Source of the DNA: Patescibacteria group bacterium
GTDB lineage: Bacteria > Patescibacteriota > Patescibacteriia > JBDRGY01
Direction: 5' to 3'
Assembly: GCA_043817315.1 (NCBI GenBank)
Contig: JBDRGY010000002.1
Span: 1,046-65,045 of the forward strand
DNA: 64,000 bases
Below the pieces are notes generated by a model. It had not been told where the DNA came from, did no database searches, and saw only the letters and a program-made list of their open reading frames with translations. This document shows, piece by piece, positions 6,801 to 60,356 of the stretch (position 1 is its first letter; every line of letters begins with the position of its first letter). The position numbers and the translations under genes are program-made.

Positions 6801-8891
6801 GCCGGGGTCAGTGGCGTCGTATTTGAAAGTGAAGGCGGTCCAGGTTGCTACGGCTTTATTTCCGGCAACATCCTGAGTTTTAATCCTTAAATAGTAGGTG
6901 CCTGATGACGAAGGAGCAGCAGTATAATTGGCATCAGTAGAATAACTACCAGCAGTGGGATCACAACTAACTGCCCCAAAACACACCCAATAACCGTGGA
7001 CTCCAGATGGATTACCCTCTGGTCCGGCTGCATCAGCTGCTCCTGCCCATGTAAAATACGGTCCGGTGTGGTTGTACCAAGTGGCCGTAGTAATGGCATC
7101 GCCTCCGTTTTCGGAATAACCATTGATGGTGTCTGGATTGGTTGGCGGGGTAACATCAGAAGGGGTAAAAGCAATGGAATTATCTTCAAAGATTGGAGTG
7201 TTTCCTCCAGAGGGCGTTAAGGTCAACTGATACTGGACATACTGCTCTGTGTCAGTCACGCAGCTGTTGGCGCTCATATCTGAACCGCTTCCTATTGCCG
7301 TGCAAGTTGAAAAATCTGGAGCACCGAACATCACCGCGCTGTCAGAAGTGCGCACTTTGACTGCCACGGTACCTGAGCCCGAAGAATTATAAGCAAGATT
7401 GCCCCAGTCAGCTGAGAATTCAGTGTTAAAAATATTAGAGGTGAGTGTCCCTGTTGATTCATAATCTGATAGACTAAAATCATCGACGTAAACTGTTTTA
7501 CTAGCCTTCACCTGCACTCCATAAGTACGACTAGAAGCAGCCCCGGTTACAGTACCGGTTAGTTTGTACCAACCACCAGCATCGGCAGTGAAGGCTGTGG
7601 TCACAGTTGAGCCGTTGGCATAAAGCTCCACGTCAGCATCAGTTACTTCCGAGCCGTCAGTATAGGCGTAGGCTACTAAAGTATAAGAATTTGTATCTCC
7701 TACATTAACATTCTGTAAAAGTTCCACGGTATTTGTTCCAGAAACTACCTTGGCTGATCCTGCTCCATTTCTTTTGGTGTCGGTATCCAAAGTAAGGGTA
7801 CTGCCCAAGTTAAACTTGTTAGCCAAGAAGTTTTCCACCCCGTGGCGGTCTGCGGCTGAGATCACTTCGTCATAAATCATAAATTCAGCTATACGTCCGT
7901 TAAGATTCCAGGTACCATCGGCCCATTTGCCGATGGCTAGCCGCGGACTGGAAAAAGTGGCCTGGGAACCAATGGCGCTGACGGACTGCGATACACCATT
8001 AAACCAAAGAAAATGGCGGTTTCCAGTATTAGAAACTTGCTGGGAAAAAATCTGGAACCCCGAATCTATATTGGGACCATTGGCCACACCACCGTTGTAA
8101 TAGTTATAGTAGTCATCAGCGGTTCCTCCAGGAGCGTAGCGGGAGATAGACGATCCATTACTTGGACTGGCTGGATTGTAAATGAAGTATAGGTAATCGT
8201 AATTACTAGACGGCTGATTGGTGTAGTCAAACGAGGCCACTGAGATAACAGTGATATCAGTGATCGAAGCAATAGAAGTTAAGTCCACATAAAGCACTTC
8301 TCCGTTGCCAGCTGTATCAACGTCTGGCGAAAATTGGAGAACCGCTCGGCTATTCAACTCATCTGTTTCATAAGTCGGTCGGCGGCTGGCTGACGTTTGG
8401 GAAGCGTCGTTATTGCTGCTCGATTGGTCTCCCCAAACCTGGACGGTCTGTCCGTCTGTGGCCAGGGTTGAACCATTGTCATTATAGGCTTCAGCGTCTG
8501 CTCGCCCATAAAACTCTAAACCGCTGATAGTGGTCGGATCTATGCCCAGCCAGCTGTCTAGATCACTAGAATCATCAACGCCTGTATCAGAAAATTCCTC
8601 AGTGGCTGATACTGATACCTGCCCGGCCGTGGTAGTAGCATCAATATTTGATCCTGAAGCGTATTCGTCTACGGTCGAAGAGCCTACGCCACCACTCCAA
8701 TCAGTCTGCGTCCAGGGTGAATCGGCTGCTCGGGTAAACGGCCATTGGGTAACCAGTACAACTATAACCAATACTAAAAATACCGAGATTATCATTTGGA
8801 TTCGGTACTTAACCCGGTAAATTCTAAGCCTAGCTAAAGCCTCTTTTAGCTGCTTCCTTAAATCAGAGGTTTTACTCTGTCTGGATTTCAT
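3825..8891 (-). CDS. Giant surface protein, paralog 2 (1688 aa). It has a basic N-terminal tail, a single TM anchor, a LamG-like lectin domain, many FN3-like / purple-acid-phosphatase-N-like beta-sandwich modules, and a conserved C-terminal motif.
   Basis: Single 5-kb ORF with TM segment RIQMIISVFLVLVIVVLVTQW. LamG-like signature ...LNGRIAEFMIYDEVISAADRHGVENFLANKF. Internally duplicated ~100-aa modules (NTTNSFTFSWLEP...GYYYAINA...TQQGANVFYVVAVDTAGN and NTTNSFKFTWGEP...GYYYSINQ...TQQGTNTFYIVAIDDAGN). Repeated T.EW.T......VEYG.T..YG....H.V.L.GL...T.Y.FR units. Confidence 0.9.
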   Translation of the reverse strand: MKSRQSKTSDLRKQLKEALARLRIYRVKYRIQMIISVFLVLVIVVLVTQWPFTRAADSPWTQTDWSGGVGSSTVDEYASGSNIDATTTAGQVSVSATEEFSDTGVDDSSDLDSWLGIDPTTISGLEFYGRADAEAYNDNGSTLATDGQTVQVWGDQSSSNNDASQTSASRRPTYETDELNSRAVLQFSPDVDTAGNGEVLYVDLTSIASITDITVISVASFDYTNQPSSNYDYLYFIYNPASPSNGSSISRYAPGGTADDYYNYYNGGVANGPNIDSGFQIFSQQVSNTGNRHFLWFNGVSQSVSAIGSQATFSSPRLAIGKWADGTWNLNGRIAEFMIYDEVISAADRHGVENFLANKFNLGSTLTLDTDTKRNGAGSAKVVSGTNTVELLQNVNVGDTNSYTLVAYAYTDGSEVTDADVELYANGSTVTTAFTADAGGWYKLTGTVTGAASSRTYGVQVKASKTVYVDDFSLSDYESTGTLTSNIFNTEFSADWGNLAYNSSGSGTVAVKVRTSDSAVMFGAPDFSTCTAIGSGSDMSANSCVTDTEQYVQYQLTLTPSGGNTPIFEDNSIAFTPSDVTPPTNPDTINGYSENGGDAITTATWYNHTGPYFTWAGAADAAGPEGNPSGVHGYWVCFGAVSCDPTAGSYSTDANYTAAPSSSGTYYLRIKTQDVAGNKAVATWTAFTFKYDATDPGNPSGILPNPAGFSSEDSYSFTWNAGSDAHSGIGEYCYKTGAPAATDTCIAETTVSGITSYQEGTNVFYVRSKDVAGNLLDYYTSVNYYYSANAPSEPQNLQVDPASNTTNSFTFSWLEPASHDTTIAGYYYAINAIPNANNVTYTTQTTIGPDAFATQQGANVFYVVAVDTAGNKNWSSYSSIEFTASTSAPGIPTGIIVTDSSNREQGTFRLTVTWEEPDQVGGGIDHYKVERSDDGGDTYTEISQVTGTGYLDTGLTQNAWYCYQIKATDNAEAASAASSEVCEQARGRYYEAPSLVGNPGAETRIQSATIEWLTDRECSSFVEYGETTAYGSEAGQDDHLSSHSVNLIGLEPDTTYHYRVKFTDEDDNTGYSGDYTFETADAPSAPTSLAVAPTSNTTNSFKFTWGEPVDEGVTIEGYYYSINQEPSVTNSSYTAQTTLGPGPYATQQGTNTFYIVAIDDAGNINYDNHASIEFEANTAAPGAPTNMLIIDSSDRYTEKYMLTLTWDPPTTISSGEGEEVAYIIKRSTDNKTFEDISETQSIAYIDTSLSNETTYYYKVTAKDNAGAQSAASTVVSEIPEGRYRTPPTISAGPTVTPDSFTATITWETDREADSHAEYGLTEDLGEEQGTIEESDDHTVVLEGLNAETKYYYRIRSRDIDGNIALSSISSLTTLEAPRVSEVVVSDIKLYEATISWKTNKETTSLIDYGTTTDYGSVVYDTTGSSTLSHTLKLSGLSDGTTYHFRPTGLDATDNAPESGDYAFTTLTFPRVLSVSSENKAEGQTEVKWTTNVPTTSEVEYGNEDTPSKTQGNTALVTDHSVLVFGLEDATTYQFTVRGRDQFGYEAVSPEESFTTLEDTTPPIISDVRYEANTVGSGDTASVQIIVSWMTNEPTSSQLEYGEGLSSSTYTGSTDVNPELVIDHIMVIKDLEPARTYHFRVVATDKADNETLSDSYSVLTSRKRESFLQIVIDNLSDTFSWMSNMGNLF

Positions 8892-8894
8892 TTA

Positions 8895-11800
8895 TTAAAA
8901 CAAATTGCCGATGTTTCCTAACCAGGAGAAAGTCTGTTCTAGGTTGGAGATAACTATCTGCAAGAAAGATTCTCTGGCCCTGGAAGTTAACACTGAATAA
9001 TCGTCCGATTTAGTTTCGTTTCCAGCTTTATCTACAGCTATTGTTCTAAAATGGTAAGTTCGGGCCGGCTCCAGGTCGGGTATAATCATCAAGTGATCCT
9101 GCACCAGTTCCGGATTAATATCGGTCGAAGCTGAATATGAAGTTGACCCCAGCCCCTCCCCAAAATCAGCCGCGGTAGTGGTTGGCTCATCAGTTCTAAA
9201 GGAGACAATAATCTGAATTCTGGCTGCATCACCCGATCCCACTGTATTGGACTCATACTTGACGTGAGAAATGGTAGGCGGCGTAGTATCCTCTAAGGTT
9301 CTAAAGTTGTTTTCTACTGAAACGGCCTCGTAGCCGAATTGGTCGCGGCCCCGAACCACAAAATTGTAAATAGTTGCATCATTTAAGCCAAAAAGCAAGA
9401 CGGAGTGATCGGTTACCAGGGCAGTATTACCTTGAGTTTTGGACGGTTCATTTTCATTGTAGTATTCCACTTCCGAAGTAGTGGGCACATTGGTGGTCCA
9501 CCTAATCTCTGTTTGACCTTCGGCTTTGTTTTCCGAGGTAACATCAGACACTCGCGGAAAGGTTAGGGTAGTAAAGACATAATTATCCGAATTAAATTTA
9601 TTGCCGGAAGCATCTTCTGCATAAACTCTCAAATTATAGGTGGTTCCGTCTGCTAATCCTGTCAGTTTAATAGTGTGAGTAAAGCTAGTAGAGCCAGAGG
9701 TGTCAGTGTAGGTTAAACCATAATCCGTAGTAGTCCCATATTGAATCTGGGTAGTCGTTTCTTTATTAGTTTTCCAGGAAATTGTCGCTTCATACAACCT
9801 AATATCAGTAATCTCCATTTCCGATACCCGCGGCGCTTCTAGAGTAATAAATGAGGTTACGTCGGAATAGGCTTCATTTTCATCTCGGTCAATGGATTTT
9901 ACCTGGTAGTAATAAGTAGTTTCTGGATCTAAACCGGTAATCGTCACCGAATGATCATCAATTAAGTCAGAAGTTCCCTGTTCTCGATCATAATCTGTAG
10001 CCGAAGTTCCAAACAGGACAAAGGAGGAGGCCGGTCTTTCTGTTTTCCAGGTGACGGTGGCCGCAAAGGAATCAGGTACTATGGCCGGTCCAGCTGTAAT
10101 TTCCGGCGGAGTGGTATAACGACCGTCAGCTATTTCTTCAACTGGATCAGTGGCCGCTGAAGCGGATCCGGCTTTGTCAGCTGCTTTTACCTTGTAAAAA
10201 TATAATGTCTCAAATTCTAAATCAGTATCGATATAGGCAGTAGATTTGGTGGTGGCAATAACCTCATAGTCATTGTCCTCTTCAACCGCTCTATATATTG
10301 TATAGGTAATTTCTTCTTCCAGATCTTCTTCGACTGCATCTTTTACGATTCCAGAGGCACTGGGAGGATCAACCGAATTCCAACTGACCATTATTCGATA
10401 TTCTTTATCGGCCCGGTTGGAGACATCAAAGACTTCAGGATTAAGAGGAGCATCCGGCGGGATGGTATGAGCTTCAAAATCCACTACCGCATAATTGGCA
10501 TAATTTACATTACCGGCATCATCAGTGGCCACTACGTAGAAATTATTTATTCCCTGTTGAGTGGCTGCCGCAATCGGGCCTACTTCCGTATGAGTAGTAT
10601 AATAGACATTATCTTCGTTGGGCGGGGCATTAATACTGTAGTAATAACCTCCGACCGTAATTCCCTCGTCTACCGGCTCGGCCCAAGAGAAAGTGAAGCG
10701 ATTAACCATGTTTGATTCCGGATCAACTGCCAGATTGACCGGAGCGGAAGGGGCACCCAAGGTGGTTACTTCGTATATGGCTGATTCCCCGGTATTTCCA
10801 TCTTGGTCCACCCAGACTAATTTATAGTAATAAAGGGTGTCCGGTGATAGTCCAGTGACTAAAACCTCATGCTCGTCAACCAACTCTGAGGTGCCGGTTT
10901 CTTCTCCCAAACCTTCAGTCGTTCCGTATTGGACAAAAGAGGTAGCCGGATGAGGAATAACATTACCCAAACGATCTTGATCTGGCAAAGTCAGCCACTC
11001 GACCAAAACGGACCTGATGTAAGGAGTTACCGTCGGCTGACCGGACATAGTTGGGGCAAATTTAAATTTACCTTCCGGCTTAATACTTTCTACTGCCGAA
11101 TTACCGGAAGCGGCATTCCCACTGCCAACCGCTCTGATGAAATAACTATAGGTAATGGTGTTGTCCAAACTGGTATCTAAATAACCCAAAGTGGTAGTTG
11201 TAGCAATGTTGGTGTAATTATCTGGGGGATCAGCTACTGTGGATGGATTCTCACAATCTTCCTCACAACGATAAACTTTAAAGTTCTCGGCATTGGCCGT
11301 TTCATCCCAAGTCAGAGTGACTGAATATTTTTGAGTGGAACGATCAGAGGAGTCAGTCGCCTGCAAACTGGCTGGCGGATCTGGAGCAGTAGAAGTGAAG
11401 TCATAAGTTGTAGAGGTATAATTATCGTAATCAATGTTATTAATCACATCAGCTGCCACCAGATATAAAGTATTAGTCCCTTGTTGGGTAGCCGCTGAAA
11501 AACCAGGTAATAATCTGTTGTCAGTCTGATAGGCCGAGGTCCAACCACCGTCCGGACTGGGGGTAGTATTGCCGGCCGTATTGGTACCACAATTTTCGGC
11601 GCTAGGTAATTCATTGATTGTGAAACAATAACGTAAAATTTCATTAACATCACAAGGAGTCTGACCCAAACAGGTAGCCGGTAAGCTCCAGGAAAAGGAA
11701 AAAGTGTTATTGTTTGTGGCTGAAGTAGGCGTCGCCACTAAATTTTGCGGGGCTGTTGGCGGACTACCGGCATAGTAATAAGTAGTAGTGGCATAAGAAG

Positions 11801-14800
11801 AATAGTTGCCCGCCTCATCCAGGGCTCTAACATAGAAAATATTACCTCTGGTTCGATAAGCGGTAATTTCGGTTATGTGATTGTCATCAATGCAGGTATC
11901 AACAGCGCCGGGGGCCCCGGTTTTATAACAATAATACTCAACCCCGGAACCACCGCCATCAGTTGACACGTCCCAAGAAAAATCAAAGTCATTAGTTGAG
12001 GTGTAACCCGAGGGTGTGGCCGATACGTCAGATGGGTTAGAGGGATCAATAATATCTAATTTATAGGTAAAAGTATTAGTCGGATTAGTAGTGATATTAC
12101 CGTTATTATCGACAGTTTTTATTATCAAATAATAAGTATCGGAGGTGAGGGCAGAGGCCGCCTGGGTAGCTGCATTCCAGGAACCGTCATTGCCGGAGGC
12201 TGAATATAAATTAGTGCCGGAAACATAAGCCAGGTTAGTGGGATCGCTGGCATCATCAACCGGATCTTTGCCGCTGTCATTCCCAAAATAGACATAAAAT
12301 CCTGACAATCCAATTCCGCCGGCATTATCTGCGCCGGTCCATTCAAAGTAAGGTGTAGCGTCATTAACCCAAGTATCAGTCGCAATCTCTGTTCCCCCAT
12401 CTTCGGTATAGCCGGTTGCTGAAGTCGGGTTGGTTGGGGCCGTTCCGTCAGTATAATAACTCCAAGTTAGATCATCGACCGTCGGTGAATAAAGTTGGTC
12501 AGTCACAAAATAAATTCTAACTTGTCCATACTGAGCCACGGTAGAATCAATGCTGTAATAATTAGTGCTACTAATTTCCCGATTATTGGAAACCGCTGTC
12601 CAGTCCCCCCAATTGACGTCATCTTCATCATCAGCGCAGCCGGCATTAGAACAAGTTCTAGTTTCTATACTAATAGAAGTATTAGCCGGTTCGGTTACAT
12701 TGACCGTTAGTCCTCCGTAGCCATAAACCCCAGCCTCAAAATCCAGAATTTCTGAAGTCCAATAACCGTTACCCTCAAAACCGGTGCTGGAAGTGGCCAC
12801 CACGTAACGTTCCATTGAAGTGGTATATTCTCCGCGGAAACCCAAGACCACATTATTGCCGGTCATTACCAGGTCACCGTATTCGAAGAAAGAAGTTGTG
12901 TCTCGTGTACTCCAACTATCTTCCGAGATGTCATAAACGTACATTTCATTGCCATTGGGCTCATCACCGCGCGGGATTAAAATATTTCCCTGACCGTCCG
13001 GCACGCAGGCATCGCCGTAGCGCATATTACCCGGAGCCAATGACAGAGTACCGGCCACGTCCCAAGTTTGTGAACCGATATTAAATCGATAGATATCGTC
13101 TTGATTGTTACCACGCACCATATAAATATAACCATCTCCGCCGTTAGCAGCACAACCACCAGTATAAACAGTTCCGGGGATAGCCGAGGCAACTGTCTCC
13201 CAGATATCTGTATCAATTGTGTACTTATAAAATTCTGTGGTGTTGGCGCCTCGGGCCGTATAGATAGTATTGGTTCCATCAAACACCAAATCCGATCCGT
13301 AATTAGTTTCGTTAGCCGCCGTATTGGTGTTATCCAATCTAGTCCACTTATCATCATTTATATCGTAGCGCCAAAAGGTTCCTTCATTTTCCGTTAAGCC
13401 GCTTTCTCCCGGTAATAGATAGACTCCATCATATTGGTCACTGCTATGATTTATATATTGGGCTGACGCTCCCGGTCTAACCCGCATAGGTGCATTGGCT
13501 CTGCGCTTCCAAACATCATTGGCGATATCATAAGACCACCACTCATTGGAATTACCGCCCCTGGCCACATACAGCATATCGTTATCATTATCATAAGCCA
13601 CGGCTCCGTAGTAAAAACCATAGTTGGTATATGTATGAGGCAAGGTCGGAGTTTTCCAGCGATTTTCAGAAACGTCATAGGCCAGCAGGGCATAATCAAC
13701 CTGATAGCCCCGAATGGTGTACATGGTGTCATTAGAAGGAACGTAAACCAGGTTGCCAGCCCCTCCCTGGTATTGAGTAGTCGGCAAATCATCCAACCAT
13801 TCCCAGTTTTCATTGGCAATGTCATAACGCAGAAAACCGTTAGCTGCATAACCCCGCACTAGGTAAAAATAACCATCCAAATAATAGGCGGAGGCACCAT
13901 AATGGGTCCAGATGGGCACGCTTTTTTCATAAGACCAGGTGTTGGCCGAGACCCTATAGGAATAAAAATCGGTATCGCCATAACCTCTGGTGGCATACAG
14001 ACAGCCACCTTCGTCACTGCAATAATCACCATTGGGCACATATACTAAAGTACCGCCATAATAAACCAATTGGTCAAAACCGGTCAGCTGAGTCCAATCA
14101 TCAGCCGTTTCTCCTTCTCCGACATCGGTAATAATGTTGTATTTCCAGAACTCATTGGTGGCATCTCCCCTGGTGGCATAAATAGCATTGGCGCCATCAT
14201 AGGCCAGTTGACTACCATAATAGATTTGGGACCCTTCGAAATCACTCAGGTCTGTCCAGGTGCCGGCATTAACGTTGTAGCGGCGGAAAGTGGCGGTGTT
14301 GTTACCGCCGGTGGCAAAAACACAACCTGCCGAATCGGCACAATAGGTACCGGTTGGCACATAGACCATACTGGCGCCACCGTAAACCCCCGATCCGTAA
14401 TTGGCCAGTTGAGAATAAGTTTTATCGGCTACCGAGTAAGCGTAAAATTCCTGGCGGTTGTAACCGCGGAACATAAAAATGGTGTCATCGCCGTCATAGG
14501 ACAATCCCGATCCGTAGTAACCGCCGACATTATTGGCCACCCAGGGAATGGGTGCTTCGTTGGTCCAGATGCCGTTGCTGACTGAATCCAAAGTCAGGCT
14601 GGTCCCGGATTCAGCCGCCGTATTGATATTGGTCTCCAAAGTTCCGGTCGCTTGGAAATCGGCCTGGACCGTCCAGGTATTGGTACCGGCCGGAGAAATA
14701 CCGTTATAGGTATAAGTAAAGATAGTCTCTACATCATCCGTATTGCCGGCATCATCCTTGGCCGCCACCCGCAAATAATAAGTACTGCTGTTGGTCAGAT

Positions 14801-17800
14801 CGGTATTGACTTCGTAAGTGGTTCCGGTTTGAAAATAATCTTCGGAACTGGTCGGATCGTGAGAGGCGTTGGTAGTCCAGGACAAGTAATACCCGGCCAA
14901 GCCTGATTCGGCGTCCACAGCCCCGGTTAGTTCGAAGTAAGGATTAATATAATAGTAGGAATTGCCGGTGGTTAAAGCAGTTCCCTTGGTTGAATCAGCG
15001 TAACCGACCACAGTCGGGTTAGTCGGATTGACTGAATCCTTTTCGTAGTTAATCGTAAATTCAGAAACAGTTGGAGTATTATCGTCATCCGAATTTAAAA
15101 CCACTTTGACCTGAATATAACGATTAGCCGAAGAACCAATGGTGGTGCCGGAAACTTGAGTCCAGTCCTCCCAGGAAACTTGGTCATCAGAAGTCCTGGT
15201 GTAGTAGTCAATTGTACTACCCCCCGGCTCTAAATCAGTGGCCGTAAAACTGTTAAACGAGGTAGCGTAAGTCAGATCGTAAGTCGGAGAAATCCAACTG
15301 GCTGTGGGAATGTAATCATCAGAATCGGTAGTAAATTTATAAATGGAATTGGTATCAAACCCTCGGCGAATGTACATGGTATCAGTGGCATCATCATGAG
15401 CCATGCCAATGCCACGGACAAAATTATCAGGAGTATCACTGGCCCGGCTCCAACTATCTCCCGAGATGCTGTAGCGCCACATAGAGGTGCCGAAATTGCC
15501 GGTAATGGCGTAGATACTGTCATCTCCGTCATAGGCCAACACTGCGTTGTAATAGGAACCTTCCGGTAAGTCGGCCAATTCGGTGAAGTCATCGCCAACC
15601 GGATCGTATTCGTAAAATTGAGCCCGATAATAACCGGCTAGCATATACACTTTGTTGCCATCGTTGGTTATTCCTGCACCATAATAAGCGGTCACCGGTA
15701 GATCTTCTGTAGTCCAACTGCCATCATAATGATAAATATCGTCAGTATTGTTGCCTGCCTGAATATAGACGTCACCATCACCAAAACAGGTGATTCCCCC
15801 TCCTTCTTCCACCGCTCCCGGCATACTGCCAATACTGGACCAGCCTCCGGCATCATTGCTGATGTCATAACTGTAAAAATTAGTTGTGTTAATACCCCTG
15901 GTCAAATACAGTTCTCCATTGCCGTCATAACACAGCGAGCCGCCCCGGCTGATATTGGCTAAGCCGGTCGAGGTCATGGTGTTCCAGGCTCCATCGGCAA
16001 TATCATAACGATAGAAAATGGTGGTATTTCTACCCTGGGCCATAAACAAACACCCGGTGGCATCAGAACAACCGTCTTCACTGTTGGGCACAAAGGTGAT
16101 CAGATCGCTGTCGTAATCATTGCTGGCAATAGCCGGGGTGGCAATAGAGTCCCAAGCCCCGGCAGTAATGTCATAACGCAAGAATTCCGGCCGGTTGATT
16201 CCGGGCAGAGCATATATATAGCCGTCAAAGTAGAGGAGAGTACCGCCTTCATCAACCGTTAACCCCCCCGGCATATCCGGCGGATTATCAAGATCTTCCT
16301 GCCATTCCTGGTCAGCAATATCGTACATCATAAACTCGTCATTGTTGTAACCGGTCATGGCGTAGATATTTCCGTTGACAGCGTCAACCGCCATGGAACT
16401 GCCGTAGCTAATCCGGCCGCTGTTGCCCAGGGTGGTCGGTACATTGGCAAAATTGTAAGACCATTGAGCCAGGCTGATATCATAACGGAAAAACTCGCGA
16501 TTGTTGCTGCCCCGAAAAGCGTAGATACAACCGGTCTCACAATAAACCGGACTAGTGCCATAAGAAACCGCTGAATAGACCAAGGGGTGGCCGTTGCCGG
16601 TATAAATCTGATAAGGATAGGGAATTGAAGAAATGGTGTCGTTCCAAGTATCAGTGGCAATGTTGTATGACCAAAACCCGTCCCGGCTGTTACCTTGCGT
16701 GGCGTACAGTTTACCGTTATTGCCACTGACCAGATCCGAACCCAAACCCCAGATGTCCGGCGCATCGCTTAATTGGGTCCAAATATTATTGGCAATATCA
16801 TAGCGAAACAGAAAGGGCACGCCGTTGGTGTCGTCCGAACCGTCCTGCCCGTTGATGGCATAAATATAACCGTCATAATAAGCTAGCGAGCCTCCGTAAT
16901 AGAAACCGGTTGGCGCATCAATCAGTAATTTCCAGATATTTAACTCCGGATTATAACGAAAGAAGCCCGGTTGGTTGCCACCCACGATCATGTAGATGTA
17001 AGTACCATCAGTGGTTAAATCTGCTCCATAATTGGCGCCTTCGTAAGTATAGATGCCATAGCCACGCTGATTGGTGGGATAACCCGGAGTATCTGCACTC
17101 CAAGAACCAACTCCGCCACTGGCAATTTGCAGATCACCAGAGGTTGTGGTCATGTCTAGTTGGTTAGGATAATATTGCCCGGCTTGCCACTCGGTTTGGG
17201 AAGAGACTGTGTAGGTAGCTGCCGTAGCGTGTACCAACAGTTGCTGAATTGATCCGGCCACTAGGGTGCCAATAATCAAAATTACAAAAATCGAAATAGG
17301 AGAAAAGTGCCACCACTTCTTTTTTCTAAGAACAATTAAAGGTTTTATTTTACTTTTTTCTTTTTTACGACGTTGCTGGGCCGATTTGCTAATTGCCTTT
17401 TGCCAACTGGCATGTTTTTGGGAAATTCTACCCGGGATAGCTATTATTGTTTTTATAAATCCAGTAGTTAATCCAATAACCCGCCGCCATCTGGCCTGAT
17501 TTACCTTTTTGGTAGTTTGAATGTCTTTTTTAAGATATCTCTTGGCTTTCAACTGACGGGCTCTAACGACACTTTTAACTTGCTCTCGTTTTTTAACCGG
17601 TTTAACAAAAATACTGGCTGTCTTCTCAAAGCCAGAACGCATAAGCTGGGGAATTTCTAATTTATCTTTTAGATTGAAAGAGTATTTAAAACCCTTGGGA
17701 CGACTAAAAACTTTACCGGAGTAACTGTTTCCTCCAGTTTTTTTGGACGTTTTCCCCAGAAATCTACGTGTCCCCATAGATTTCAACTTGTTTTTTTGGT

Positions 17801-17813
17801 TTGTATTTTTCAC
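8895..17813 (-). CDS. Giant surface protein, paralog 1 (2972 aa). It has a ~165-aa Lys/Arg-rich cytoplasmic N-terminus, a single TM, about 24 Kelch-like propeller blades in two blocks, FN3-like modules, and the same C-terminal region as paralog 2.
   Basis: Single 8.9-kb ORF with TM WHFSPISIFVILIIGTLVAGSIQQLL. I counted ~24 recurrences of the blade motif (F/W/M)(F/Y/W)(R/S/K)Y(D/N)I....W (FFRYNPELNIWKLL, LFRYDIANNIWTQL, FWRYDINDDKWTRL and others). The C-terminal ~700 aa align with paralog 2. The stop lies 3 nt before the paralog 2 start, so the two look like an operon. Confidence 0.9.
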   Translation of the reverse strand: MKNTNQKNKLKSMGTRRFLGKTSKKTGGNSYSGKVFSRPKGFKYSFNLKDKLEIPQLMRSGFEKTASIFVKPVKKREQVKSVVRARQLKAKRYLKKDIQTTKKVNQARWRRVIGLTTGFIKTIIAIPGRISQKHASWQKAISKSAQQRRKKEKSKIKPLIVLRKKKWWHFSPISIFVILIIGTLVAGSIQQLLVHATAATYTVSSQTEWQAGQYYPNQLDMTTTSGDLQIASGGVGSWSADTPGYPTNQRGYGIYTYEGANYGADLTTDGTYIYMIVGGNQPGFFRYNPELNIWKLLIDAPTGFYYGGSLAYYDGYIYAINGQDGSDDTNGVPFLFRYDIANNIWTQLSDAPDIWGLGSDLVSGNNGKLYATQGNSRDGFWSYNIATDTWNDTISSIPYPYQIYTGNGHPLVYSAVSYGTSPVYCETGCIYAFRGSNNREFFRYDISLAQWSYNFANVPTTLGNSGRISYGSSMAVDAVNGNIYAMTGYNNDEFMMYDIADQEWQEDLDNPPDMPGGLTVDEGGTLLYFDGYIYALPGINRPEFLRYDITAGAWDSIATPAIASNDYDSDLITFVPNSEDGCSDATGCLFMAQGRNTTIFYRYDIADGAWNTMTSTGLANISRGGSLCYDGNGELYLTRGINTTNFYSYDISNDAGGWSSIGSMPGAVEEGGGITCFGDGDVYIQAGNNTDDIYHYDGSWTTEDLPVTAYYGAGITNDGNKVYMLAGYYRAQFYEYDPVGDDFTELADLPEGSYYNAVLAYDGDDSIYAITGNFGTSMWRYSISGDSWSRASDTPDNFVRGIGMAHDDATDTMYIRRGFDTNSIYKFTTDSDDYIPTASWISPTYDLTYATSFNSFTATDLEPGGSTIDYYTRTSDDQVSWEDWTQVSGTTIGSSANRYIQVKVVLNSDDDNTPTVSEFTINYEKDSVNPTNPTVVGYADSTKGTALTTGNSYYYINPYFELTGAVDAESGLAGYYLSWTTNASHDPTSSEDYFQTGTTYEVNTDLTNSSTYYLRVAAKDDAGNTDDVETIFTYTYNGISPAGTNTWTVQADFQATGTLETNINTAAESGTSLTLDSVSNGIWTNEAPIPWVANNVGGYYGSGLSYDGDDTIFMFRGYNRQEFYAYSVADKTYSQLANYGSGVYGGASMVYVPTGTYCADSAGCVFATGGNNTATFRRYNVNAGTWTDLSDFEGSQIYYGSQLAYDGANAIYATRGDATNEFWKYNIITDVGEGETADDWTQLTGFDQLVYYGGTLVYVPNGDYCSDEGGCLYATRGYGDTDFYSYRVSANTWSYEKSVPIWTHYGASAYYLDGYFYLVRGYAANGFLRYDIANENWEWLDDLPTTQYQGGAGNLVYVPSNDTMYTIRGYQVDYALLAYDVSENRWKTPTLPHTYTNYGFYYGAVAYDNDNDMLYVARGGNSNEWWSYDIANDVWKRRANAPMRVRPGASAQYINHSSDQYDGVYLLPGESGLTENEGTFWRYDINDDKWTRLDNTNTAANETNYGSDLVFDGTNTIYTARGANTTEFYKYTIDTDIWETVASAIPGTVYTGGCAANGGDGYIYMVRGNNQDDIYRFNIGSQTWDVAGTLSLAPGNMRYGDACVPDGQGNILIPRGDEPNGNEMYVYDISEDSWSTRDTTSFFEYGDLVMTGNNVVLGFRGEYTTSMERYVVATSSTGFEGNGYWTSEILDFEAGVYGYGGLTVNVTEPANTSISIETRTCSNAGCADDEDDVNWGDWTAVSNNREISSTNYYSIDSTVAQYGQVRIYFVTDQLYSPTVDDLTWSYYTDGTAPTNPTSATGYTEDGGTEIATDTWVNDATPYFEWTGADNAGGIGLSGFYVYFGNDSGKDPVDDASDPTNLAYVSGTNLYSASGNDGSWNAATQAASALTSDTYYLIIKTVDNNGNITTNPTNTFTYKLDIIDPSNPSDVSATPSGYTSTNDFDFSWDVSTDGGGSGVEYYCYKTGAPGAVDTCIDDNHITEITAYRTRGNIFYVRALDEAGNYSSYATTTYYYAGSPPTAPQNLVATPTSATNNNTFSFSWSLPATCLGQTPCDVNEILRYCFTINELPSAENCGTNTAGNTTPSPDGGWTSAYQTDNRLLPGFSAATQQGTNTLYLVAADVINNIDYDNYTSTTYDFTSTAPDPPASLQATDSSDRSTQKYSVTLTWDETANAENFKVYRCEEDCENPSTVADPPDNYTNIATTTTLGYLDTSLDNTITYSYFIRAVGSGNAASGNSAVESIKPEGKFKFAPTMSGQPTVTPYIRSVLVEWLTLPDQDRLGNVIPHPATSFVQYGTTEGLGEETGTSELVDEHEVLVTGLSPDTLYYYKLVWVDQDGNTGESAIYEVTTLGAPSAPVNLAVDPESNMVNRFTFSWAEPVDEGITVGGYYYSINAPPNEDNVYYTTHTEVGPIAAATQQGINNFYVVATDDAGNVNYANYAVVDFEAHTIPPDAPLNPEVFDVSNRADKEYRIMVSWNSVDPPSASGIVKDAVEEDLEEEITYTIYRAVEEDNDYEVIATTKSTAYIDTDLEFETLYFYKVKAADKAGSASAATDPVEEIADGRYTTPPEITAGPAIVPDSFAATVTWKTERPASSFVLFGTSATDYDREQGTSDLIDDHSVTITGLDPETTYYYQVKSIDRDENEAYSDVTSFITLEAPRVSEMEITDIRLYEATISWKTNKETTTQIQYGTTTDYGLTYTDTSGSTSFTHTIKLTGLADGTTYNLRVYAEDASGNKFNSDNYVFTTLTFPRVSDVTSENKAEGQTEIRWTTNVPTTSEVEYYNENEPSKTQGNTALVTDHSVLLFGLNDATIYNFVVRGRDQFGYEAVSVENNFRTLEDTTPPTISHVKYESNTVGSGDAARIQIIVSFRTDEPTTTAADFGEGLGSTSYSASTDINPELVQDHLMIIPDLEPARTYHFRTIAVDKAGNETKSDDYSVLTSRARESFLQIVISNLEQTFSWLGNIGNLF

Positions 17814-30421: not shown

Positions 30422-30501
30422 TATTACAGCGAATTCTTAAGGTCTTGAGCCGTATGAAAGGCCGAAATCCCGCCGATTGGCGGGGCCTCTCGGGAGACCA
30501 T

Positions 30502-30539
30502 GGGCCGTTAGCTCAGTTGGCTAGAGCGTCACTTTCGCA
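30502..30539 (+). other. 5' fragment of a tRNA-Ala(CGC)-like gene (positions 1-37: acceptor 5' strand, D arm, anticodon stem 5' strand and CGC loop) with no matching T arm downstream
   Basis: GGGCCGT TA GCTC AGTTGGCTA GAGC G TCACT TTCGCA. It is followed at once by the GC-rich bracket motif CCCGCCTATCGGAGTGCGG. Confidence 0.6.
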
Positions 30540-30556
30540 CCCGCCTATCGGAGTGC

Positions 30557-30628
30557 GGGCCAGTAGCTCAGTGGTAGAGCACTGCATTCGCATTGCAGGG
30601 GTCAGGGGTTCGACTCCCCTCTGGTCCA
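30557..30628 (+). tRNA. tRNA-Ala(CGC), no encoded CCA
   Basis: GGGCCAG/CTGGTCC acceptor with G3-U70, anticodon stem CTGCA/TGCAG with loop TTCGCAT, T arm AGGGG TTCGACT CCCCT. Confidence 0.9.
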
Positions 30629-30802
30629 TTTCCGCACGGCGGGCAGGTGGCGAAAGTCGCCCCGCTTTTTGGCGGAGCACGGCACCAAATCAAAAAAATG
30701 CCTAAAATCAGCCAAATTTTGGCTTGATTGTTTTTACAAAATGTGTTAGAATTAAGTTGTCCTTAATTTAGAAAAAATCCAAATTGAAAGGGGGTGAACT
30801 AA

Positions 30803-54310: not shown

Positions 54311-54351
54311 GGCTTGATTTTTAAAAAATTTCTGCTAGAATAGCCTATACT

Positions 54352-54426
54352 GGCCACGTAGCCAAGTGGTAAGGCGGAGGTTTGCAAAACCTTTATTCGG
54401 CGGTTCGATCCCGCCCGTGGCCTCCA
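54352..54426 (+). tRNA. tRNA-Cys(GCA), CCA encoded
   Basis: GGCCACG/CGTGGCC acceptor, loop TTGCAAA, T arm GGCGG TTCGATC CCGCC, discriminator U73. Confidence 0.9.
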
Positions 54427-54427
54427 T

Positions 54428-54482
54428 CCTTCGACAAGCTCAGGATGAGCATTGGAGAAGGATGCCCTGAATTTATTGAAGG
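54428..54482 (+). repeat. 17-bp-arm hairpin between tRNA-Cys and the GIY-YIG start
   Basis: CCTTCGACAAGCTCAGG (54428-44) pairs with CCTGAATTTATTGAAGG (54466-82) at 15 of 17 positions, including two G-U pairs that work only in plus-strand RNA. The 3' arm ends 4 nt before the ATG and covers the only SD-like GAAGG. Confidence 0.6.
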
Positions 54483-54486
54483 GCAA

Positions 54487-54744
54487 ATGAAATATTACGT
54501 CTATATTTTAAAATGTGACGAGGAAAATTTATATACGGGATCGACTTGTGATTTGAAAAATCGGATTGAAAAGCATAAAAAAGGAGAAGGTGCTATATTT
54601 ACCAGAAACAGAAAATCGATTAAACTTGTATATAAAGAACTTTATAAAATAAGGGAGTTGGCTGAAAAAAGAGAAAAGCAGATAAAAGGGTGGTGCAGAA
54701 AAAAGAAGATAAATTTAATCAAATTTGGCCATCCTCTAGGGTAA
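54487..54744 (+). CDS. Small GIY-YIG nuclease-family protein (85 aa)
   Basis: MKYYVYILKCDEENLYTGSTCDLKNRIEKHKKG (GIY-YIG motifs YVYIL / LYTGST, R, E). The longer track ORF overlaps tRNA-Cys and is rejected. Confidence 0.85.
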   Translation: MKYYVYILKCDEENLYTGSTCDLKNRIEKHKKGEGAIFTRNRKSIKLVYKELYKIRELAEKREKQIKGWCRKKKINLIKFGHPLG

Positions 54745-54753
54745 ATAGAATCT

Positions 54754-54827
54754 GCGGATGTCGTATAATGGTTATTATTCATCCTTGCCAAGGATGAGAT
54801 GGCGGTTCGATTCCGCTCATCCGCTCC
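54754..54827 (+). tRNA. tRNA-Gly(GCC), CCA encoded
   Basis: GCGGATG/CATCCGC acceptor, stem CATCC/GGATG with loop TTGCCAA, T arm GGCGG TTCGATT CCGCT. Confidence 0.9.
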
Positions 54828-54854
54828 ATTTTTTAAAAGCCACTTAAGATAAAT

Positions 54855-54941
54855 GCCGCGGTGGCGGAATCGGTATACGCGCTGGACTTAAAATCCAGTG
54901 GTGGCAACACCTTGAGAGTTCGAGTCTCTCCCGCGGCACCA
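54855..54941 (+). tRNA. tRNA-Leu(TAA), long variable arm, CCA encoded
   Basis: GCCGCGG/CCGCGGC acceptor, stem CTGGA/TCCAG with loop CTTAAAA, variable arm TGGTGGCAACACC, T arm GAGAG TTCGAGT CTCTC. Confidence 0.9.
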
Positions 54942-54988
54942 AAATTAAAAACAACCCTGAAATTAGCGGGCTGTTTTTTTATCTATTG

Positions 54989-55516
54989 TTATTTTAGTAT
55001 TTCTACCTTTAAAATCTTAGCACCCCAGGCCTTGGCTTCGGCCTTGCTATGAACCCACATATCAAATAGATACTGGGAGGTATGTCTTTCATGCAATCTA
55101 TCTTGAATCACAAATATCTTATCGCCGAATTGGTCCGGGAATCGGACCTTAGTGCCAAATGGCAAATACTGATGCGCCATTATCCCGTTGGCCGTTCGTT
55201 CGCCAGAGGCAGTGACAAAGGGATCGCCTGAAGTTTCGTCCGGGGAAGATGAATAGGCAGTTACTGTGGTCCAAAAGGTTTTCTTGACCTCATATTCTTT
55301 GGCGGGGATGTCGGGCAAGGCTTCAATTGGAGACATGTTGATTTCTCTGCAGATCAGCTGGGCGTCGTCATAAACCAGGCTCAATTCGGGCTGAGTAGCA
55401 ATAGAATATTGGGGCAGCCAAACAGAAACAAAAGAAACCAACGAAATAATAACAACATAGGTTGCTAATCCGTTGGTTTTGCTTCCCCCTTGAGAAATAT
55501 GCCTCTGAAATCTCAT
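54989..55516 (-). CDS. 3D-domain (MltA/RlpA-like double-psi beta-barrel) cell-wall protein with an N-terminal signal anchor
   Basis: 175 aa. VTAYSSSPDETSGDPFVTASGER...G..A......FGTKV.. is typical of the 3D domain. Confidence 0.75.
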   Translation of the reverse strand: MRFQRHISQGGSKTNGLATYVVIISLVSFVSVWLPQYSIATQPELSLVYDDAQLICREINMSPIEALPDIPAKEYEVKKTFWTTVTAYSSSPDETSGDPFVTASGERTANGIMAHQYLPFGTKVRFPDQFGDKIFVIQDRLHERHTSQYLFDMWVHSKAEAKAWGAKILKVEILK

Positions 55517-55829
55517 AGGTTAACCAATTTAAAATCCCCTTTATTTTGGGGAGTAATTTACATAATAACACGGCTATTTTGCCCTGTCAAGGGATAAAAA
55601 AGGCCTGGAAATCCGCTTCTTCTTTGGTCGTTTTTAAGACTTGTTCTTGATTCCTTTTCCCACCAACCAGATAACTACTATTAAGACAATTGCTGCTGTT
55701 ACCCAAGCCCACCAGTAGTCGATAATTATTTCTTCCATCTTTTTTTGTCGATTACTTTTTTATTTATTAGAGCGAGTGACCCCGCTGTTGGCGGGGCGTC
55801 TTCGGCTCGCTTGTATAACCTGTTCAGTA

Positions 55830-55901
55830 AGCGGGTGAGCGGAATCGAACCGCCGTCTTCAGGTTGGAAACCTGACATAATAGCCACTATACTACACCCG
55901 C
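55830..55901 (-). tRNA. tRNA-Gly(TCC), no encoded CCA
   Basis: Minus strand: GCGGGTG TA GTAT AGTGGCT ATTAT G TCAGG TTTCCAA CCTGA AGAC GGCGG TTCGATT CCGCT CACCCGC T. Confidence 0.9.
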
Positions 55902-55955
55902 CCGCCCAATTCCTGGAACCTACATCTTTCTAGATAAGTTACAAGAATTGGGCGG
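55902..55955 (-). repeat. Perfect 12-bp inverted repeat (CCCGCCCAATTC / GAATTGGGCGGG, 30-nt loop) between the GIY-YIG stop and tRNA-Gly(TCC); its last base is tRNA position +1
   Basis: Read directly on the minus strand: CGCGCCCGCCCAATTC ttgtaacttatctagaaagatgtaggttccag GAATTGGGCGGG CGGGTGTAG. Confidence 0.7.
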
Positions 55956-55962
55956 GCGCGCC

Positions 55963-56220
55963 TTAACGAGACGCTAGATAATTTTTTAAGTTTTTCTTAA
56001 TAAATCTTCTCCCCCAGCCACTTTTATAGTATCTTTCTCTCTGGAGGGCATCTTGCTTGCTCAGGAAAGCTTCGCAATAAATTAACTTCAGTGGTAAGTG
56101 GGGCTGGGTTGAATAAGTTGACCCTTTATTGTGTTCTTTGACTCTCTTCTTTAGATTCTTGGTGAATCCTATATATAACCTGCCATTTTTCTCACTTTGT
56201 AGAATGTACACGTAATACAT
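55963..56220 (-). CDS. Small GIY-YIG nuclease-family protein (85 aa)
   Basis: MYYVYILQSEKNGRLYIGFTKNLKKRVKEHNKG...E. Confidence 0.85.
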   Translation of the reverse strand: MYYVYILQSEKNGRLYIGFTKNLKKRVKEHNKGSTYSTQPHLPLKLIYCEAFLSKQDALQRERYYKSGWGRRFIKKNLKNYLASR

Positions 56221-60008: not shown

Positions 60009-60030
60009 AATATTTTAGGTTAATAATAGA

Positions 60031-60284
60031 TGGTGCCGAGGGGCAGAATCGAACTGCCGACGCAAGGATTTTCAGTCCTTCGCCCCGCCCGCCGAACAAC
60101 GGCGAACTTGGAAGTAATCTACCTTTGGTGCCTGGGGCCAGAATCGGACTGGCGACGCAAGGATTTTCAGTCCTTCGCTCTACCACTGAGCTACCCAGGC
60201 TTCAAAGACAGACTACAAATTTCTTTTTCAATCAACTATATTCGCTCGGCGTTGCGGACAGGTCTACCACTGAGCTACCTCGGC
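60031..60284 (-). tRNA. Interrupted outer tRNA-Phe(GAA). 5' part 60284-60263 (positions 1-23), 179-nt insert 60262-60084, 3' part 60083-60031 (positions 24-76 including CCA).
   Basis: The 5' part is GCCGAGG TA GCTC AGTGGTA GA. The 3' part is GC G AAGGA CTGAAAA TCCTT GCGTC GGCAG TTCGATT CTGCC CCTCGGC A CCA. The acceptor pairing GCCGAGG/CCTCGGC is perfect and all loops are canonical. The insert ends form a 9-bp helix (CCTGTCCGC / GCGGGCGGG, with 2 G-U pairs). Confidence 0.55.
60126..60200 (-). tRNA. tRNA-Phe(GAA), complete, nested inside the outer tRNA-Phe insert; its T loop is non-canonical
   Basis: GCCTGGG TA GCTC AGTGGTA GAGC G AAGGA CTGAAAA TCCTT GCGTC GCCAG TCCGATT CTGGC CCCAGGC A CCA. 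The T loop reads TCCGATT, so the near-invariant U55 is C. Confidence 0.75.
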
Positions 60285-60356
60285 TAATTTTAAAAAAAAA
60301 CCTATTTGCTATATCAGTTTAGCCGACCAAGGGCAAAAAGTCAACTAGAAAAACTC

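Follow-up and report, generated by a model that had tools for sequence, protein, structure and literature searches.

A 60-nt spacer that follows a cysteine tRNA gene in a patescibacterial genome is probably the left end of a small mobile, or once-mobile, cassette of about 300 bp. The cassette resembles the repeat-flanked Ssn nucleases, and appears to have inserted directly after the CCA of tRNA-Cys as a selfish unit of nuclease and hairpins. Its host is a metagenome-assembled genome of the Patescibacteria (Candidate Phyla Radiation, CPR), and the stretch of contig JBDRGY010000002.1 analyzed here, called the window, is 64,000 nt (64 kb) long. The cassette lies inside a tRNA operon with the gene order Cys-Gly-Leu, and consists of three parts: hairpin A; hairpin B; and GIY-1, a gene for an 85-residue GIY-YIG protein. 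The nuclease gene and its cognate hairpins behave as one block, which a locus has or lacks as a whole and which in this clade stands exactly at the ends of tRNA genes. The evidence lies in the anatomy of the locus, the association between repeat and gene, the junction with the tRNA, the existence of both filled and empty sites, and duplicated tRNA 3' parts. The locus is laid out as follows.

54352-54426, plus strand: tRNA-Cys(GCA), called by ARAGORN and by Rfam (tRNA, 66 bits), with the CCA encoded.
54425-54447, plus strand: hairpin unit A, the left cassette end, with stem CATCC/GGATG and loop TTCGACAAGCTCA (54430-54442).
54463-54485, plus strand: hairpin unit B, an inverted, degenerate copy of A, with stem TGCCC/GGGCA and loop TGAATTTATTGAA.
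54487-54744, plus strand: GIY-1, an 85-residue single-domain GIY-YIG nuclease gene (Pfam PF01541, E 4.7e-15).
54754-54828, plus strand: tRNA-Gly(GCC), called by ARAGORN and Rfam, 9 nt past the GIY-1 stop codon.
54855-54941, plus strand: tRNA-Leu(TAA), called by ARAGORN and Rfam, the last gene of the operon.

An initial annotation, made from the sequence alone, had placed an 85-residue GIY-YIG gene between tRNA-Cys and tRNA-Gly/Leu, and these calls bear it out. The PF01541 match spans GIY-1 residues 2-76, and Pfam and NCBIfam scans find the GIY-YIG domain and no other. Residues of the catalytic type are intact (Y6, Y16, R26, H30, and E63), and all five are invariant or nearly so in an alignment of 34 sequences (alignment A1). 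The cassette carries this single open reading frame (ORF), without a tyrosine or serine recombinase.

The same annotation regarded the N-terminal extension of the listed ORF as bogus, formed by translated hairpin arms, and this also is correct. The 120-residue ORF, with a TTG start, reads ...PSFDKLRMSIGEGCPEFIEGQ-MKYY, in which the extension is translated spacer. The NCBI gene model (99 residues) starts at the ATG at 54445, inside the repeat. Both are over-extended into the spacer, where they read FDKLRMS..PEFIEG, because homologues start at MKYY. Gene models of the GIY-1 family often run into repeats in this way, and acquire false N- or C-terminal tails: FDKLR, STGSG, FDSAQPP, SLSEVEG, SLSKG, or PEPVEG. 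Database homologues among the over-extended models include P0009, P0018, P0027, P0054, P0080, P0083, P0092, P0106, and P0112. At several loci the true stop codon, TGA, is formed by the first three bases of a TGAGC motif.

The spacer between tRNA-Cys and GIY-1 occupies 54427-54486, and the final two bases (CA) of the tRNA belong to the 5' arm of hairpin A. The initial annotation read the spacer as one long hairpin.

54428-54482, plus strand: the long hairpin, an alternative pairing between units A and B.

Its arms are CCTTCGACAAGCTCAGG (54428-54444) and CCTGAATTTATTGAAGG (54466-54482). They pair at 15 of 17 positions, including two G-U pairs, with two C-A mismatches, and the second arm stops 4 nt short of the ATG. 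All of this was described accurately. Nevertheless, the long hairpin is not the minimum-energy structure when the RNA is folded: its energy is -14.7 kcal/mol alone and -19.9 kcal/mol with an inner stem, whereas the best fold of the spacer, at -27.7 kcal/mol, consists of two local hairpins (54427-54462 and 54463-54485). The long hairpin thus is 7.8 kcal/mol worse. The two G-U pairs had been taken as a mark of RNA. As RNA, the spacer indeed folds far better than shuffled sequences (plus strand, z -4.8), but the minus strand (z -4.2) folds equally well, so the structure bears no RNA-specific mark. What makes the long pairing possible is the presence in the spacer of one repeat motif in two inverted copies; the two G-U pairs mark positions at which copies A and B have diverged.

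Both units have counterparts elsewhere. The loop of unit A recurs with other stems among 80 related loci. Unit B appears in both DNA and RNA folds (z -2.4 on its own), and has homologous units in L001 (gcccTGAGTTTACCGAAgggc), L003 (gcccTGAGTTTATCGAAgggc), and L086 (gcccTGAGTTTATTGATgggc). The order A then B upstream of the gene also is found in the CPR loci L001, L003, L084, and L086. The motif TTCGACAAGCTCAGG has a single occurrence in the 64 kb of the window, and therefore is no high-copy repeat here. Rfam covariance models gave no match on the spacer up to E = 5.

The repeat is not peculiar to this genome. The GIY-1 family is large, with 9232 clusters (at 50% identity) at E<=1e-3 and 797 at E<=1e-10. 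A first sample comprised 80 loci from GTDB, on contigs of one genome per species totaling 443 kb, whose proteins are 44-56% identical relatives; a 12-sequence alignment served as the query, the 34-sequence alignment being too diverse. The sample is mostly Bacteroidota, along with CPR, Planctomycetota, Cyanobacteria, Chloroflexota, and Spirochaetota. Almost all the genes in it come with at least one copy of the repeat. The repeat has a variable stem of 3-6 bp and a conserved loop of 13-14 nt, TTCGAC-NN(N)-GCTCA, or TGAGC-NN(N)-GTCGAA in reverse complement; one example is ggtggcTGAGCggaGTCGAAgccacc. The 443 kb contain 239 conserved-loop hairpins with stems of at least 4 bp (shuffled sequence, 0-1), and 146 of them (61%) lie within 200 nt of the gene. 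At least one hairpin is present within this distance at 55 of the 80 loci, and hairpins occur on both sides of the gene at 32.

Three measures describe the stem, whose covariation is strong. When loops are chosen blind to the stem, 62% turn out to be closed by 4 bp or more without a mismatch (0.4% by chance). In 90 sequences selected by loop, the stem covariation score is 0.416, compared with 0.157 for shuffles (0 of 500 reach the observed value) and 0.06-0.16 for slid partners. Three or four closing stem pairs in these sequences show many double changes.

The exceptions to perfect pairing are informative about the strand. Among stems with at least 4 of 6 Watson-Crick pairs, the non-Watson-Crick pairs read on the TTCG..CTCA strand are A-C in 100 cases and G-T in 17. 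An A-C pair on this strand is a G-T wobble on the opposite strand, and the bias holds equally for motifs in either orientation relative to the gene. Because the bias ignores gene orientation, the TGAGC..GTCGAA strand is the only one that tolerates wobble, whatever the direction of transcription. This is the strand on which selection appears to act, and a single-stranded DNA (ssDNA) substrate would fit better than an mRNA element. Placement of the motif likewise favors a DNA element: it is found in both orientations, and downstream of genes as well as upstream, and its distance to the start codon varies from about 4 nt in the window to 17-24 nt in L001 and L003 and 14-80 nt elsewhere.

An Rfam scan of 20 related loci found tRNAs and a single match of another kind, to Flavo-1. 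This RNA motif (RF01705, 58 bits) lies at positions 2201-2296 of L009, in a Flavobacteriaceae genome, about 700 nt upstream of the GIY-YIG gene. It was considered as the repeat and rejected, being a different motif.

The association with tRNA genes emerges from a second sample, of 80 metagenome loci found with an alignment of CPR-type proteins. The CPR-type label of these contigs rests on the query alignment and low GC content; most have no taxonomic assignment, and many are short. A tRNA gene lies within 300 nt of the nuclease gene at 32 of the 80 loci, and tRNA density is 0.93 per kb inside this distance versus 0.12 per kb farther out. All nearby tRNAs (41 of 41) are on the strand of the gene. 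The junction itself is precise. At 21 of 29 loci with an upstream tRNA, TTCG begins 0-3 nt past the annotated tRNA end; at 18 of these 21, the tRNA itself supplies the 5' arm of the hairpin through its final 3-5 bases, closing the loop with a stem of 3 bp or more. Examples of such stems are gacca/tggtc, gaccc/gggtc, gcac/gtgc, and accc/gggt, to be set beside catcc/ggatg in the window. Among 109 tRNAs, the TTCG junction is present at 23 of 34 that are followed by the gene versus 3 of 75 others, and two of these three gene-less junctions are solo hairpins. The idea that the hairpin marks the boundary or target of the cassette, one of two roles proposed for it initially, thus is upheld.

The solo hairpins sit at a tRNA end between two tRNAs, in L125 (1517-1540) and L138 (359-385), as in gcacTTCGACTTTGCTCAgtgc. 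Neither is followed directly by a GIY-YIG gene, and both contigs carry such genes elsewhere. The possibility that hairpin A is itself a T-arm fragment of a tRNA was examined and rejected: the flanks do not fit, and the TTCGA resemblance alone remains.

Evidence of insertion comes from comparison of syntenic contigs, located through the neighboring uracil-DNA glycosylase gene. The Cys-Gly junction is filled in the window and in L165, with a spacer of 327 nt in both. In L161, L162, and L163 the Cys-Gly(GCC) junction is empty, with a spacer of 13 or 21 nt and flanks 67-73% identical. The empty site in L163 reads CCA|TCCT once, then CT...AATCT as in the window. The 5' arm of hairpin A therefore pre-exists in the target, because the empty site already reads CCA|TCCT. 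One candidate for a duplicated target is visible at the far end of the window gene.

54729-54735, plus strand: CCATCCT, a candidate 7-nt target duplication, possibly a direct repeat of 54424-54430 (the tRNA CCA plus TCCT).

This duplication is ambiguous: its codons line up with conserved GKP codons in L001 and L003, and no other duplicate of the tRNA 3' part was found after the window gene. Duplications are clearer elsewhere. Five loci (L001, L093, L104, L109, and L147) carry, immediately past the gene, a second copy of 11-20 nt from the tRNA 3' part, a segment that extends from the T-loop or T-stem to the discriminator. In four of these loci (L001, L093, L109, and L147) the cassettes between the repeats measure about 300-450 bp. 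At the right junction the T-loop sequence TTCGAA is mimicked, because in several loci the repeat directly follows ..GTCGAA. Such duplication is limited to 5 of 29 loci. Finally, cassettes whose proteins are 72-80% identical stand behind three different tRNAs: tRNA-Gln(CTG), tRNA-Gln(TTG), and tRNA-Met. All three share the same left-end loop, and the 3' arm of the hairpin is adjusted to each tRNA.

Filled locus L165 has its own history. Its positions 1347-2847 are 99.7% identical to 54384-55884 of the window over 1.5 kb, starting in the tRNA-Cys anticodon loop, and the flank upstream of this tract is only 69% identical. The tract could be a recent transfer, a recombination product, or part of a chimeric low-coverage contig. 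L165 was rejected as a clean comparison: it has a further insertion in tRNA-Cys, and may be recombinant or chimeric.

The initial annotation had guessed at a selfish or mobile cassette that lands beside tRNA genes, and had suggested that relatives be compared for tRNA distance, for a shared repeat, and for filled and empty Cys/Gly spacers. Each comparison goes its way: tRNAs nearby and uniformly co-oriented in the CPR-type sample; the hairpin close to the gene at most GTDB loci; empty sites in L161-L163 opposite filled sites in the window and L165; and closely related cassettes behind three tRNAs. Relatives of a second nuclease gene in the window, GIY-2 (described below), point in the same direction.

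The nearest described parallel is the Ssn family, single-domain GIY-YIG proteins of about 94 residues that cut ssDNA next to hairpin repeats and leave double-stranded DNA (dsDNA) and RNA uncut (Chenal 2025, PMC11893778). Ssn genes typically are flanked by these repeats, called NTS in Neisseria and generalized as SRM, and the authors likened the repeat-gene-repeat unit to an insertion sequence and to REP/RAYT (PMC11893778). The cassettes described here are similar in several respects: a single GIY-YIG domain in a protein of about 85-100 residues (85 for GIY-1); a gene flanked by hairpin repeats of 20-50 nt, often on both sides and inverted, in the manner of an insertion sequence (IS); different repeats paired with different clades; and a strand asymmetry that fits a single-stranded substrate. 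Proxies for SsnA were obtained by scanning IMG/VR viral contigs for NTS. The scan yielded three NTS-adjacent GIY-YIG genes, one of which (L263) is flanked on both sides. GIY-1 is 38-43% identical to these proxies over 80-82 of 85 residues (94-96%), with pairwise E values of 3e-15 to 5e-19. One difference is that the present cassette sits precisely at tRNA gene ends, with the tRNA 3' part duplicated; tRNA, Bacteroidota, and Patescibacteria are not named in the Ssn paper, although its phylogeny spans bacteria broadly (PMC11893778).

Activity on ssDNA, the strand used, the mechanism of mobility, and the mode of expression are inferred. By analogy with Ssn proteins, GIY-1 would be an endonuclease specific for both structure and sequence, recognizing and cutting hairpins in ssDNA, most likely on the TGAGC..GTCGAA strand. 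Nuclease and hairpins together would form a selfish unit that spreads to, or is kept at, tRNA gene ends. The anatomy of the junction suggests how the target may be chosen: the 3' arm of the element would pair with the terminal bases of the tRNA, and the likeness of the T-loop (TTCGA) to the repeat loop could contribute. Insertion with a duplication of 11-20 nt presumably would require host repair or replication.

Expression probably occurs by read-through from the tRNA promoter, because the cassette has no recognizable promoter of its own and always is co-oriented with the tRNA. Two features frame the operon.

54314-54341, plus strand: promoter-like site TTGATT-16-TAGAAT with TG, upstream of tRNA-Cys, by consensus match only.
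54952-54980, plus strand: terminator-like hairpin CAACCC..GGGCTG followed by a T run, after tRNA-Leu, read by eye.

The promoter-like region is conserved in L161, L163, and L165, and is the probable promoter of the tRNA operon that now holds the cassette. The terminator-like hairpin was missed by the terminator scan because its loop is 10 nt. Inside the spacer (54427-54486) the promoter scan found no convincing promoter and the terminator scan called no site; no T run follows unit A or B.

A more general proposal is put forward tentatively. These cassettes may represent a minimal class of mobile element: an Ssn-like nuclease with T-loop-like hairpin ends, in which target bases complete the stem and pairing guides insertion at tRNA ends, duplicating the segment from T-loop to 3' end. 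CPR genomes would harbor several such nuclease-hairpin pairs (GIY-1, GIY-2, and a third type).

Several observations weigh against a mobile, Ssn-like cassette at this locus. The window holds one unit A, one degenerate unit B, no unit downstream of the gene, and no clear target duplication, so this copy may be inactive or fixed. Hairpin A is marginal on its own, at -1 to -4 kcal/mol as DNA. In the mostly Bacteroidota GTDB sample, a tRNA lies within 200 nt at only 5 of 80 loci, three of the five CPR loci in that sample being among them. The SRM consensus, HGTCWYN(0-2)YYVSBRHN(0-5)WNVSBRGN(0-2)RNCYNB, written as a pattern that does find the model NTS, has no match in the window and one in the 443 kb (shuffles, 0-4). 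The logic of the motif differs as well: conserved bases are in the loop and the stem is free here, whereas NTS conserves the stem and 5' flank. GIY-1 is at least as close to UPF0213 proteins, which match it in size and conserved residues; its best full-length matches of solved structure are BH0048 of B. halodurans (PDB 1zg2, E 1e-13) and EF2693 of E. faecalis (PDB 1ywl, 6e-9). UPF0213 proteins are functionally uncharacterized and, to our knowledge, have not been linked to repeats or tRNAs. The activity of this clade would be assigned by analogy rather than by biochemistry. Because the SRM is absent and the motif logic differs, GIY-1 is better called Ssn-like, with a distinct repeat class, than a proven member of the family.

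The best of the other explanations, itself unlikely, is a domesticated host function, in which a nuclease and hairpins that have lost their mobility serve the cell, for example by restricting incoming ssDNA or modulating recombination near tRNA operons, along the lines proposed for SsnA and NTS in Neisseria. NTS and SsnA modulate natural transformation, and domestication of an IS-like unit has been proposed for them (PMC11893778). An intact ORF with its catalytic residues would suit such a role, as would the degenerate B unit and lack of a clear duplication in the window copy. The distribution would not: close relatives have or lack the cassette in a patchy way; tRNA ends in the same lineage host several cassette types that are unrelated; a gene-less remnant (L161) and the solo hairpins of L125 and L138 exist; and one or two hairpin copies per 64 kb are too few for genome-wide marking.

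Classical free-standing homing is more doubtful still. Here, the enzyme would cut the dsDNA of an empty tRNA spacer and repair would copy the gene in, leaving the hairpins as incidental features or leftovers of the target. A precedent is T4 SegB, a GIY-YIG homing enzyme whose gene lies in a tRNA gene region that the enzyme cuts (PMC2330249). GIY-1 is comparable in its position among tRNA genes and in a mobility aimed at the tRNA region, but SegB is a multi-domain, dsDNA-cutting enzyme without hairpin repeats or duplication, and the present gene is about one third its size. Characterized GIY-YIG homing enzymes carry a DNA-binding domain (PMC11893778). The SegB and I-TevI architecture, a linker and C-terminal DNA-binding domain in about 200-250 residues, is absent from the 85-residue single domain of GIY-1. 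The NCBIfam model for group I intron endonucleases does not match GIY-1, and GIY-2 scores 24.8 bits against a cut-off of 56. Filled and empty sites both exist, as homing would predict, and the 1.5-kb tract in L165 beside its 69% flank looks like co-conversion, but recombination between strains or a chimeric contig of low coverage would explain it equally. No duplication results from homing, yet five loci repeat 11-20 nt of the tRNA 3' part; related cassettes stand behind different tRNAs; and in different phyla the gene has the hairpin repeat beside it even where tRNAs are far away.

The remaining alternative, an RNA regulator in which the long hairpin of a tRNA-Cys/GIY transcript sequesters the Shine-Dalgarno (SD)-like GAAGGG or sets the mRNA 5' end after tRNA 3' processing, is improbable, and with it the translational gating first proposed for this hairpin: the pairing that ends 4 nt before the ATG is real, the spacer RNA is well folded relative to shuffles, and constant co-orientation makes co-transcription with the tRNA very probable, but the long hairpin loses to two local ones, folding is equally good on the minus strand, relatives place the B unit 14-80 nt from the ATG, L001 has nothing SD-like near its start, the motif is found in either orientation and on the downstream side of genes too, the variable stems covary locally and not between units A and B, and the wobble asymmetry tracks the motif rather than the sense strand, the wobble-tolerant strand of A-oriented copies being the antisense one.

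None of these alternatives accounts at once for the link between repeat and gene across phyla, for the duplications, and for the strand asymmetry. A mobile or once-mobile nuclease-hairpin cassette remains the favored explanation.

Other GIY-YIG cassettes adjoin tRNA genes in the same lineage. The window contains a second example, on the minus strand.

55829-55902, minus strand: tRNA-Gly(TCC), called by ARAGORN and Rfam.
55900-55957, minus strand: a 13-bp perfect hairpin in the sequence, GCCCGCCCAATTC...GAATTGGGCGGGC, between GIY-2 and tRNA-Gly(TCC).
55963-56220, minus strand: GIY-2, a second 85-residue GIY-YIG gene (Pfam, 1e-16), immediately upstream of tRNA-Gly(TCC).

GIY-2 is 35% identical to GIY-1, and the 3' arm of its hairpin overlaps the first bases of tRNA-Gly(TCC). 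All six distinct loci of GIY-2 relatives lie inside co-oriented tRNA arrays, with another kind of hairpin (ACGT-flanked). At the corresponding site, L161 (4800-4905) lacks the gene but retains the GIY-2 hairpin and ~20 nt from the end of the ORF; L163 (3818-3829) has a bare 12-nt spacer with neither hairpin nor ORF remnant. A third type of 85-residue GIY-YIG cassette occupies the 5' end of tRNA-Cys in L161 (4268-4640) and L163 (3283-3650). It has an 8-nt direct repeat, GGCCACGT, on both sides and nested GC-rich hairpins, one containing GCGAAGC, and its ORF stops at a TAG inside the tRNA.

Insertions of another sort are found within tRNA genes themselves. At 60030-60290 of the window (minus strand), a resident tRNA-Phe gene (GCCGAGG...CCTCGGCACCA) is split by an insertion of about 190 nt that contains an entire tRNA-Phe of its own (60126-60200) as well as a GC-rich tail, gttcgccgttgttcggcgggcgggg; the 3' remnant of the resident gene is annotated by ARAGORN as another tRNA-Phe (60031-60103). 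In L165 (1090-1350), an extra complete tRNA-Cys, GC-rich hairpins, and the tail tgttcgccaggcaggcgggc replace the 5' half of the old tRNA-Cys gene, which survives as its 3' part from the anticodon onward. A possibly similar event is seen at 30500-30690 of the window, where a tRNA-Ala 5' half is followed by a full tRNA-Ala(CGC) and GC-rich hairpins. Elsewhere in the window (3825-17813, minus strand) are two adjacent giant ORFs of 1688 and 2972 residues.

Three further systems invite comparison. REP/RAYT and IS200/IS605 elements likewise combine a small gene, flanking hairpin repeats, solo copies, and recognition of single-stranded hairpins. In IS608, the target bases beside the left end are read by base pairing with the element; the tRNA terminal bases that pair with the 3' arm of hairpin A are a parallel. 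These elements differ in using an HUH Y1 transposase, which is distinct from GIY-YIG in fold and chemistry, and duplications of 11-20 nt are not characteristic of IS200/IS605. No HUH/Y1 transposase family was found when both ORFs (GIY-1 and GIY-2) were scanned with Pfam and NCBIfam, and we know of no transposition chemistry for GIY-YIG alone. Integrative elements that target tRNAs place a recombinase beside a duplicated tRNA 3' part, an arrangement that this cassette does not have. Lastly, rRNA genes of CPR bacteria contain GIY-YIG ORFs in non-intron insertions, and insertions in these genes generally lie mostly at stem-loops (PMC11270868). Host, gene type, and placement of non-intron insertions within structured-RNA genes are alike; the targets there are rRNA, and that study includes no hairpin repeat, tRNA, or boundary analysis (PMC11270868). 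Literature searches on GIY-YIG with tRNA or CPR, on UPF0213/YhbQ, and on the motif sequences found, within the library searched, no description of this repeat or of the tRNA-end junction.

The first account of Ssn-type nucleases dates only from 2025. The idea of an IS-like unit was raised, and not tested, in that work (PMC11893778); the present loci add comparative evidence for mobility in the form of filled and empty sites, duplicated target segments, and one cassette type behind different tRNAs. They also add a second, very widespread class of repeat, defined by its conserved loop, and a defined target, the ends of tRNA genes. On the practical side, such repeats routinely are mistranslated into false protein termini in databases, the NCBI model of GIY-1 included. 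The loci make it testable how a 10-kDa nuclease without a DNA-binding domain finds its site, and they suggest a source of enzyme-hairpin pairs with new ssDNA specificities.

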